Positions 9,001-12,000 of a DNA stretch of 50,823 nucleotides are shown in pieces (within the stretch, counting starts at the first letter, position 1; each line of letters starts with the position of its first letter). Made by a program: the position numbers. This stretch comes from a virus (taxonomy: Duplodnaviria > Heunggongvirae > Uroviricota > Caudoviricetes). The stretch lies in the IMG/VR virus record IMGVR_UViG_2721755725_000006, one strand, 5' to 3'.

Positions 9001-12000
9001 GATATGATCAACGGCAATCAAAAAAGCTGGCTGGCACATTGTACCGATTCAGAGGCGTTAATAATCGACAGGGTTATTGGTGAAGTACTGGCAGGTTATC
9101 CCGGGCTGCTCAATGTTCTGAGTCAGCGTTATGTGGGGCGGGGGATGACTAAGCGCAAAATGGCTGAACTGCTGAATGATGCACATCCGGAATGGAGTTT
9201 AAGAACCTGTGAAAGACGCATTGAGCATTGGCTAAAGGTGGCAGAATTTATTTTGTACAAACCAATGGTTATGGCTTTTGGTATAGATAAAAAAGTTATT
9301 GCTTTTTGACGTAAAAACTGCTTCAATTCCGGTACGCTTCGCAAAGCTGTACCGCGAGGCGAATAGCAGACATGGACATTTGAAAGAGCCCGCTTTTTGC
9401 GGGTTTTTTTATGACTGAAAAACGGCACGGGGCGTTAAATGCGCTGGTGGTTGCGAATACCGGTCTTTCTGCTTGCTGGCTTTTTGGACAAGAGTTATTG
9501 GTATGTCACGTTAACCAAAAGGGAAAAAAGACATGCTAAAACAGCAGGATATGACAGAAACCGCCAGAGTGGTGTTTAATGAATTAAGCGTTACCGAACC
9601 GGCGACAGTCGGGGAGATTGCGCAGAATACTTACCTTTCACGCGAACGCTGCCAGTTAATACTGACCCAGCTTGTTATGGCGGGTCTGGCAGACTATCAG
9701 TGCGGTTGTTACAGACGCCTTCAGTCCTGAAGGCTTTTTATTTGTGGTGAATGGGCGGCTGGTGGGGGGGCGACACCTGTCAGTCCTTTGCTTATGTGTT
9801 GATGATAATTTACCTTTTGGGGCTATAATTGAGCTAACCAATTGCTAATGAAAGTAAAATTATAATGGCTGTTGTCTGTTCAGTTATCATGGTTTGCTCC
9901 CCAATTAATATTTTTCTTGAAAAGGATACGTTGTCACTTAAGCCAGGCTCAGTCGTTCTGGCCACCAAATGCATCAGGGAGCTTTTCCTTATGCATTATG
10001 GCAAAGTTAAAATTGTCGATATAAGCGAATCCGTCGTAAGTCAATATCTGGAAAGTCAGCATAAGCTGACGAGGACTCGTCTGACTGACATTCCGCTTTA
10101 CCTGTTGCTGGAACCCAACAATCCTGCGTTGGCTGCGGCTTTAATTACCAGCCAGGGATTTTCCGGAGAGGTCACGGATATGTTTCTTATGATGGCCTGC
10201 CTGTCTCTGTTTGAAACAGATGAACGGATGTCATTGTTTTTAAGTGGATGTTTATCCAGCATAAGTGCCAAAGTCAGGGCGATAATTCAGACAGATATAT
10301 CAGCAAGCTGGACGCTTGGTGCGATTGCTCTACAGTTGCATATGAGTGAGAGTTTGTTAAAGACAAAACTGAAAAATGAAGGGGGCATGTTCAGTCGCTT
10401 GTTGCTGGAAGAGCGGATGCGTGTTGCTGTAAATATGTTATGTTCCCGGCATGGATATGGACAGGCTATAGCAGAAAAATGCGGTTATTCAAGCAGGTCC
10501 TACTTTATTTCTGTATTTCACCGCTATTATGGCTTCCCGCCAGACAGATATGTATCCAGGCAAGGGCTTGATTATTGATTTTCATCTGATTATTATTTTT
10601 TGGCTCGGTCCTTTAGCTCAGTGGTGAGAGCGAGCGACTCATAATCGCCAGGTCGCTGGTTCAAATCCAGCAAGGGCCACCATATTACATACCGCTATTA
10701 GCTCATCGGGACAGAGCGCCAGCCTTCGAAGCTGGCTGCGCGGGGTTCAAGTCCCCGATGGCGGTCCATTATCAGCATCATGCGTTGTTAGCTCAGTCGG
10801 ACAGAGCAATTGCCTTCTAAGCAATCGGTCAGTGGTTAGACTCCACTACAACGCGCCACACTTATTTTCCAGGCTCGCTTCGGCGGGCCTTTTTTGTATC
10901 TGCGCCACGCCCGGCGCATATCAACCACAGAGCCTTTCGGGGGTGAGCTTACGGAGTGGTCAGTGTGACTTTCTCTGTGGGCAGATCGCTCCCGGGCGTT
11001 GGCTCACCCACCCAAAGGAACGTCACGATGTTTGTAAGCGTCAACGGAGCACCGTATTGACGCTTATTTATTGGTGAGTACTACGTTCCATGGCAGGAGT
11101 TCGTCAACACGGTTGGAGGGCCATTCCGGCAGTACGCTCAGAATATGGCGCAGATACGCTTCCGGATCGATACCGTTCAGACGGCAGGTGCCGCTCAGCC
11201 CGTACAGCAGTGCTCCACGCTCGCCGCCGTGATCGCTACCGAAGAACACGTAATTTTTCTTTCCGAGACAGACTGCACGAAGCGCTCTTTCCGCTGTGTT
11301 ATTGTCCACCTCCGCCAGACCGTCATCACTGTAATAACAGAGGGCGTCCCACTGATTCAGTACATAGCTGAACGCTTCGCCCAGTCTGGATTTTTTCGAC
11401 AGCGTGCCATTCTTCTCCACCATCCATTCATGCAGCGACGTCAGTAACGCTTTGCTTCGCTGCTGCCTGGCTGCAAGACGCTCTGATTCTGGTAATCCCC
11501 GTATTTCATCCTCGATGGCGTACAGTTCACTGATTCGCTTCAGGGCTTCTTCTGCCGTCGCACTTTTGCTGCTGATGTATACATCGTGGATTTTTCTCCG
11601 GGCATGAGCCCAGCACGCAACTTCTGTCAGCGCACTACCTTCACGTTCTGCACTGAACAGCCTGTCATAACCTGTGAACGCATCCGCCTGCAGGATACCC
11701 CGGAAGGGGCGGAGGTGTTGCTCCGGGTGTTTCCCCTGCCGGTTCGATGAGTACGCGAACCAGACCGCCGGAGGAGATGACGAACCCGCATTGCGATCAT
11801 CCCGGACATACGTCCAGATGCGCCCTGTTTTCGTCTTTTTCAGGCCCGGTGCCAGTACCTTTACCGGTGTGTCGTCAGTGTGAAGCTTGCGGGTATTCAT
11901 CACATAACGGTACAGGGCATCATTCACCGGTGTCATTAACTGGCAGCACGCGTCAACCCAGTTGGAGAGTAAGGCCCGGCTCAGTTCGACACCCTGGCGG

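Follow-up and report, generated by a model that had tools for sequence, protein, structure and literature searches.

An O111 allele of the prophage-encoded AraC-type regulator gene psrB in a lambdoid prophage of enterohaemorrhagic Escherichia coli

The 50,823-nucleotide stretch analysed here (IMG/VR virus record IMGVR_UViG_2721755725_000006, hereafter the window) represents a lambdoid prophage from enterohaemorrhagic Escherichia coli (EHEC) of serogroup O111; from 9300 to 11060 it shows 100% identity to strain 11128 (O111:H-) and to many other O111 genomes. Behind a gene for a late antiterminator of the Q type it carries an intact open reading frame (ORF; 9865-10578, + strand) that begins with ATG and encodes a protein of 237 residues (WP_000301789.1), which, as judged by sequence comparison, is the O111 allele of psrB, the gene Z2104 of prophage CP-933O in the O157:H7 strain EDL933. 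In the account that we hold to be highly probable, this orthologue would act as the O157-type regulator does, turning up the glutamate decarboxylase (GAD) genes and turning down type III secretion encoded by the enterocyte effacement locus (LEE), and would be transcribed at a low level from a promoter of its own in the lysogen. As a near-identical allele of a characterised regulator in another serotype, the gene is already known; what is contributed here is one more allele and its context, not a new principle.

Identity of the gene and its relatives

What identifies the window gene as psrB? The assignment to Z2104 was made via published primer sequences and coordinates (PMC4763077). The primers for Z2100, Z2101, Z2102 and Z2104 are found with zero mismatches and in order in CP-933O of EDL933, with the Z2100-to-Z2104 spacing of 2597 bp as published (PMC4763077), and the same primers match the window, again with zero mismatches, at 7530, 8400, 8925 and 10125-10282, the last of these being the 158-bp amplicon of the Z2104 pair, within the psrB ORF. 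The EDL933 gene (1,905,274-1,905,987 of the closed genome, in CP-933O) and the window gene are 99.4% identical in nucleotides, and their products (EDL933_RS10010 in CP-933O) share 235 of 237 residues (99.2%), the differences being H196Y and I202V; both affect positions that vary, 196 being a histidine in most family members. Both near-identity to the Z2104 product and the gene order of CP-933O are thus found: the neighbours in EDL933 are, as in the window, DUF968, RusA, the Q-like gene, a 65-residue ORF, psr, tRNAs, a TerB-like gene and an esterase, with a PerC-family gene further downstream of psr, and positions 3536-11044 of the window are 99.0% identical to the CP-933O locus. A published gene table lists Z2104 as the AraC-type regulator of CP-933O, and two reviews equate z2104 with PsrB on O island (OI) 57. 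Taken together, the primers, the gene order, the 235 identical residues and this equation identify the window gene as the O111 psrB allele. The likeness of the two loci covers length, flanks, the slot between the 65-residue ORF and the tRNAs, and a downstream PerC/Pch gene with an identical protein accession; the window differs in an IS66-family element after the tRNAs, in the presence of all three tRNAs, and in the nleL-espN cargo at the prophage end.

The preliminary description of this DNA, made from the sequence alone, had guessed at a regulator of the Psr/PatE type, and in this it was right, the gene being an orthologue of psrB, with PatE more distant. O157 has a second Psr copy, in CP-933M (Sp4-type; WP_000261909.1), which resembles PsrB in 90.7% protein identity, in occupying the same slot with the same tRNA cluster and in having a PerC/Pch gene on its prophage, and differs from it in 22 substitutions, another Q type and integration at yccA/serT. 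This copy is probably the protein called PsrA. The published location of psrA is in conflict with the genome, however: two reviews give psrA as z1789 on OI-50, whereas a published gene table describes Z1789 as a 'putative envelope protein', and a search of CP-933N/OI-50 in the closed EDL933 genome found no Psr homologue, the second copy lying in CP-933M only. Either the original assembly was chimeric there or the locus tag was mis-copied. The identity of the CP-933M copy to PsrB fits the '90%' that is quoted for PsrA.

PatE (Z0321/ECs_0287, in CP-933H/Sp1) is likewise prophage-borne and a full-length homologue, at 37% identity, and according to a review it also activates gadE and hdeA, acting at the same hdeA promoter region. 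It is, however, a distant paralogue of 247 residues, located where a degraded prophage ends, beside an insertion sequence (IS) and not in the slot between Q and the tRNAs; as a candidate orthologue it was rejected for its low identity and its different prophage and position. AppY, encoded by DLP12 of E. coli K-12, can be likened to PsrB by description, as a prophage-encoded AraC regulator tied to acid resistance and cited beside PsrB and PatE, but it lies on another prophage and has another regulon.

The AraC/XylS protein that the preliminary description had proposed is borne out by profile searches, with matches to Pfam HTH_AraC (2.4e-13; 50.3 bits against a cut-off of 26.6, in two stretches) and HTH_18 (5.8e-10; 39.8 bits against 33.6, residues 155-230). 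The product has the C-terminal DNA-binding domain of about 100 residues with two helix-turn-helix motifs by which the family is defined, and the nearest solved structure is the DNA-binding domain of GadX (3MKL, 7e-19), followed by Rns, CsvR and ToxT. The chromosomal acid-fitness-island regulators YdeO, GadX and GadW give the best profile matches and belong to the same regulatory circuit; the NCBIfam model for YdeO aligns to residues 1-229 of the product, that for GadX to the C-terminal half only. Both were rejected as identities, YdeO (NF007407 equivalog) at 108 bits against a curated cut-off of 348 and GadX (NF007432 equivalog) at 87.3 bits against 500. The comparison places PsrB in the GadX/YdeO/Rns branch of the AraC family, yet, with scores far below the equivalog cut-offs, in a distinct lineage carried by phages.

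To the virulence regulators Rns, CsvR and ToxT, which have a fatty-acid-binding N-terminal domain, the likeness is in the linker and DNA-binding domain (5e-16), while identity to the psrB product is about 20%. An AlphaFold model built with 12 sequences has low confidence (predicted local distance difference test 62.5, predicted template-modelling score 0.40) and shows N-terminal beta-strands followed by helices; in a Foldseek search with this low-confidence model, Rns, CsvR and ToxT were the top full-length matches, at a template-modelling score of only ~0.27. This agrees with, but does not decide for, an architecture of the Rns/ToxT kind and gives no proof of a ligand pocket.

Many database entries give a shorter form of 195 residues starting at M43. 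That this would be the true product (from ATG 9991) is hardly credible, numerous as these entries are and although ATG 9991 has the better Shine-Dalgarno sequence, GGGAG lying before it. The start at ATG 9865 is at a disadvantage here, with no convincing Shine-Dalgarno sequence ahead of it and just GAAAG 10 nt upstream. Nevertheless, conservation of residues 1-42 of the 237-residue form extends to every homologue, those of only 38% identity included, but M43 does not share in it; codons 1-42, compared with a 59%-identical O113 homologue, yield a nonsynonymous rate (dN) of 0.34 and a synonymous rate (dS) of 1.39, a dN/dS of 0.24; and the alignments of both PatE and the YdeO model to the product start at residue 1. 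Because of this conservation, the low dN/dS and the reach of both alignments, the 237-residue start is correct and the M43 form a mis-call. Over the whole gene, dN/dS ranges from 0.17 to 0.46 across alleles, which indicates purifying selection.

RefSeq names WP_000301789.1 merely 'helix-turn-helix domain-containing protein', the matching PHROGs family (phrog_1450, 8.8e-99) is labelled 'unknown function', and a cluster look-up of the product returned generic names and no 'Psr' ones. With names such as those of RefSeq and PHROGs, automatic annotation hides a characterised virulence and stress regulator.

A psrB-like match is present in 830 of 5426 complete E. coli genomes, with 590 records at 99% identity or more. 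The carriers include O157, O111, O145, O121 and the neonatal meningitis E. coli strain S88, and, at ~92%, Stx2-carrying Shiga toxin-producing and enterotoxigenic E. coli. In every locus examined the psr slot is the same, between the 65-residue ORF and the late-region tRNAs, whatever the Q type; in phiSTEC1575-Stx2k and STEC409 it lies directly upstream of stx2, and in most Stx2a phages it holds a DNA methylase gene instead of psr. To judge from these loci, the slot behaves as a site for interchangeable accessory genes and, as psr is swapped there with unrelated cargo such as the methylase, psr would be a dispensable accessory gene and not a core phage function. At the O113:H21 locus, a methylase remnant lies directly upstream of a divergent psr.

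Probable transcription in the lysogen and predicted role

The preliminary description had placed the gene between the Q-like gene and the tRNAs. This order holds, but the direct upstream neighbour of psrB is the 65-residue ORF, the Q-like gene ending 555 nt upstream. The latter (8743-9309, + strand) encodes a protein of 188 residues, is orthologous to Z2102, whose primers match it at 8925 and 9047, and is recognised as phrog_753, 'anti-termination protein Q-like' (1.2e-80; Pfam DUF1133 in RefSeq). The 65-residue ORF (9533-9730, +) is the equivalent of Z2103 and matches phrog_331 (2.1e-37), its homologues being annotated as 'TrmB family transcriptional regulator'; it is also conserved in Stx2 phages, upstream of the corresponding slot.

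Where a single terminator ahead of psrB had been described, two hairpins are found. A strong intrinsic terminator with a 13-bp stem and U7 (9381-9410, +) lies 72 nt past the stop codon of the Q-like gene and folds at -18.2 kcal/mol (z = -5.77), with 0 of 200 shuffles as stable; it is a candidate for the tR' of the late operon. In phages encoding Shiga toxin (Stx), a short constitutive RNA from the late promoter ends at tR', and such an RNA might end at 9381-9410. A promoter scan of the region identified no late promoter. The second, terminator-like element (9717-9741, +, from a terminator scan) consists of a hairpin (9717-9734) with a 7-bp stem, a stop codon in its loop and a T-run, with TTTTTATTTG after the hairpin; it forms in the minimum-energy fold, is of modest stability (z = -1.67) and is conserved in close homologues. 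Since these two terminators separate psrB from the region of Q and the late promoter, transcription by polymerase not modified by Q would stop before psrB. An Rfam scan found no known regulatory RNA between the Q-like gene and psrB.

The 134-nt AT-rich spacer that follows the 65-residue ORF contains, 36 nt before the psrB ATG, the TATAAT (9824-9829) on which the preliminary description had based its promoter. With ATGATA at -35 (9802-9807), a spacer of 16 nt and a C at -13, it forms a candidate psrB promoter (9802-9829, +) that matches the consensus at 10 of 12 positions. One may speculate that the C at -13 and the weak -35 would suit sigma-S at this site. In the lysogen, a promoter of its own, probably this one and possibly responsive to sigma-S, would give psrB low-level transcription; after induction, Q-modified polymerase arriving from upstream would add to it.

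Data from strand-specific RNA sequencing of uninduced EDL933 (PMC4048457) bear on this. The values for Z2104 are 26 in lysogeny broth, 37 at pH 9, 36 with nitrite, 14 in minimal medium and 18 on radish sprouts, and in 12 of the 13 columns it is given a background probability of 0; for the Q-like Z2102, for Z2103 and for the downstream Z2105, several or many columns show no more than background (PMC4048457). This supports a view of psrB as a separate, weakly active transcription unit; it does not pinpoint the promoter. Expression in the lysogen independently of Q, as had been proposed, thus gains indirect support from the terminators and from these data, the step to a particular promoter being inferred.

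As to its role, reviews citing Tree 2011 and Yang 2015 state that PsrB of O157 binds the gadE promoter and the hdeA promoter region from -132 to -45. By the same reviews, O157 PsrB activates the genes of acid-resistance system 2 (AR2/GAD) and, when induced, helps the cells to survive pH 2.5-3.5 and the mouse stomach; the Psr proteins of O157 raise the expression of gadE and yhiF, and PsrB and PsrA repress LEE type III secretion indirectly, via GadE and YhiF. Psr genes, a review further notes, occur on prophages exclusively, in association with effector loci and with Pch regulators. Both features are found in the window, which provides a lambdoid context (Q-like gene, RusA, holin, terminase and tail genes), a PerC-family gene at 20973-21287 and the effector genes nleL and espN at 43737-50076. 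By analogy with the O157 orthologue, the O111 PsrB would bind the gadE and hdeA promoters, raise the expression of the GAD acid-fitness island and, by way of GadE and YhiF, reduce type III secretion from the LEE. This equivalence of function we infer from the nature of the two substitutions, which affect variable positions, one of them with H196 as the common family residue. Through regulators of the PsrB type, prophages commandeer the host GAD circuit and so adjust how EHEC survives the stomach and secretes by the type III route; that an intact psrB occurs in an O111 prophage in linkage with pch, nleL and espN agrees with what is known of non-O157 EHEC, which share this regulatory cargo.

Several points weigh against this account of regulation and have to be set beside it. 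Promoter-like sites in 9200-11100 (1.9 kb) number 3 against a shuffle expectation of 3.0 +/- 1.5, and TATAAT, with 22 occurrences in the window against 17.8 expected, is not enriched. Because the motif count equals chance and the hexamer is not enriched, the TATAAT that had been reported is present but its promoter role is suggested by plausible placement, not by a statistical signal, and 9802-9829 is a candidate only. A 69%-identical O113:H21 homologue has TATACT at the aligned -10 and lacks a conserved -35; upstream alignment among close alleles, which are more than 92% identical, is uninformative, so that the comparison amounts to the -10 surviving in the divergent O113 homologue. A literature search for published EHEC transcription-start maps gave nothing usable at the psrB locus. 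Furthermore, the Z2104 reads could partly cross-map to the 94%-identical CP-933M copy; H196Y and I202V fall in the DNA-binding half, and the functional data come from O157 proteins, not from the O111 allele; and, according to reviews, secretion in O157 changed little when psrB was deleted, while the acid-resistance phenotypes used induced expression, for which reasons the contribution of native PsrB may be small.

How far do these points favour other explanations? The most serious of them, if still rather unlikely, is that psrB is intact but a redundant or silent passenger, masked by the chromosomal GadX, GadW and YdeO and by other Psr/PatE copies. The slight effect of the deletion on O157 type III secretion and the use of induced expression, both as given in reviews, would fit this, as would the low values for Z2104 (1-37; PMC4048457) and the AT-rich DNA of the gene (44% GC against 50% for the window), which is typical of genes silenced by H-NS; the purifying selection on psrB, its near-identical retention in hundreds of genomes and several EHEC serotypes, and its intactness in a prophage disrupted by IS elements argue the other way. 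Somewhat less probable again is that psrB has no promoter of its own and is a Q-dependent member of the late operon, made mainly on induction like stx2 or the methylase of its slot, the TATAAT being fortuitous. The gene does share its strand with the late operon and comes after Q, in the slot of the Stx2a methylase and just upstream of stx2 in phiSTEC1575-Stx2k and STEC409, and the promoter motif is no more frequent than by chance. However, the two terminators would block transcription without Q modification, uninduced EDL933 transcribes Z2104 above background with more consistency than the Q-like Z2102 (PMC4048457), and deletion of the paralogue psrA, according to reviews, alters secretion without prophage induction; moreover, the two routes are not mutually exclusive. 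Very improbable, finally, is a PsrB that controls phage genes (the tRNAs, lysis or lysogeny) and not host genes. Its place among phage regulatory genes and the 'unknown function' label of phrog_1450 leave room for such a role, but a review reports gadE and hdeA as direct host targets of the orthologue, and the exchange of the slot contents for unrelated cargo speaks for an accessory and not a core phage gene.

Beyond the reading of psrB as a GAD-activating, LEE-lowering regulator with its own promoter, a more far-reaching combination is conceivable, in which the N-terminal domain of PsrB is a fatty-acid sensor of the Rns/ToxT type and induction also delivers a burst of Psr with Shiga toxin; that both should hold we regard as improbable. 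If the first part were true, gut lipids would govern, through a switch carried by phages, whether acid resistance or type III secretion prevails. If the second were, as the place of the psr slot on the Q-dependent late transcript, directly upstream of stx2 in Stx2k/Stx2e-type phages, would allow, Psr would be delivered in a burst together with the toxin.

The surrounding prophage

Downstream of psrB lies a tRNA cluster (10607-10858, +; ARAGORN, Rfam tRNA and RefSeq) made up of an ileZ-type tRNA with anticodon CAT, tRNA-Arg(TCG) and tRNA-Arg(TCT). The first of these (10607-10682) is called Met by ARAGORN; in RefSeq the CAT tRNA of O111 and EDL933 is a tRNA-Ile (ileZ-type, presumably lysidine-modified) and that of S88 and phiSTEC1575 a tRNA-Met. 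The cluster is followed by a terminator (10871-10896, +; hairpin 10871-10890 in the terminator scan, fold -14.6 kcal/mol) and by an IS66-family insertion (11045-13565, - strand; tnpA, tnpB and an ISEc47-like transposase in RefSeq), which interrupts the late operon and is absent from CP-933O of EDL933. This element, just past the tRNAs, takes the position of stx2 in phiSTEC1575-Stx2k and STEC409. A further insertion, of the IS3 family and 1.3 kb long, lies in the lysis region (17512-18819, with an ALIL frameshift pseudoknot at 17847-17963); the prophage of O111 strain 11128, 99.9% identical apart from this, lacks it. The IS3-family and IS66-family insertions suggest that the window prophage is defective, while psrB stays intact.

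The PerC/Pch-family regulator gene (20973-21287, +; WP_001302717.1 in RefSeq, the same accession as in CP-933O of EDL933) has a perfect TATAAT (20895-20900) ~70 nt ahead of it, which may be another promoter of an accessory gene. The type III effector cargo (43737-50076, +) comprises nleL (43737-45893), with an NCBIfam match to a HECT-type E3 effector at 3e-274, and espN (46675-50076), both named so in RefSeq, and is 99.9% identical to the cargo of CP-933N in EDL933. The first 43.6 kb of the window (1-43594) match the prophage at 2.53-2.58 Mb of strain 11128, which ends in nleC, and the last 7 kb (43523-50607), with nleL and espN, are 99.9% identical to CP-933N-type cargo that lies ~1 Mb away in 11128 and E2863. 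Relative to 11128 the window prophage is a hybrid, which suggests recombination or an inversion between prophages. Two further RNAs were recognised by Rfam, the sok antitoxin RNA of a hok/sok module at 6141-6315 and the small RNA STnc100 at 14168-14340, just upstream of a SASA-family esterase gene (14478-16415).

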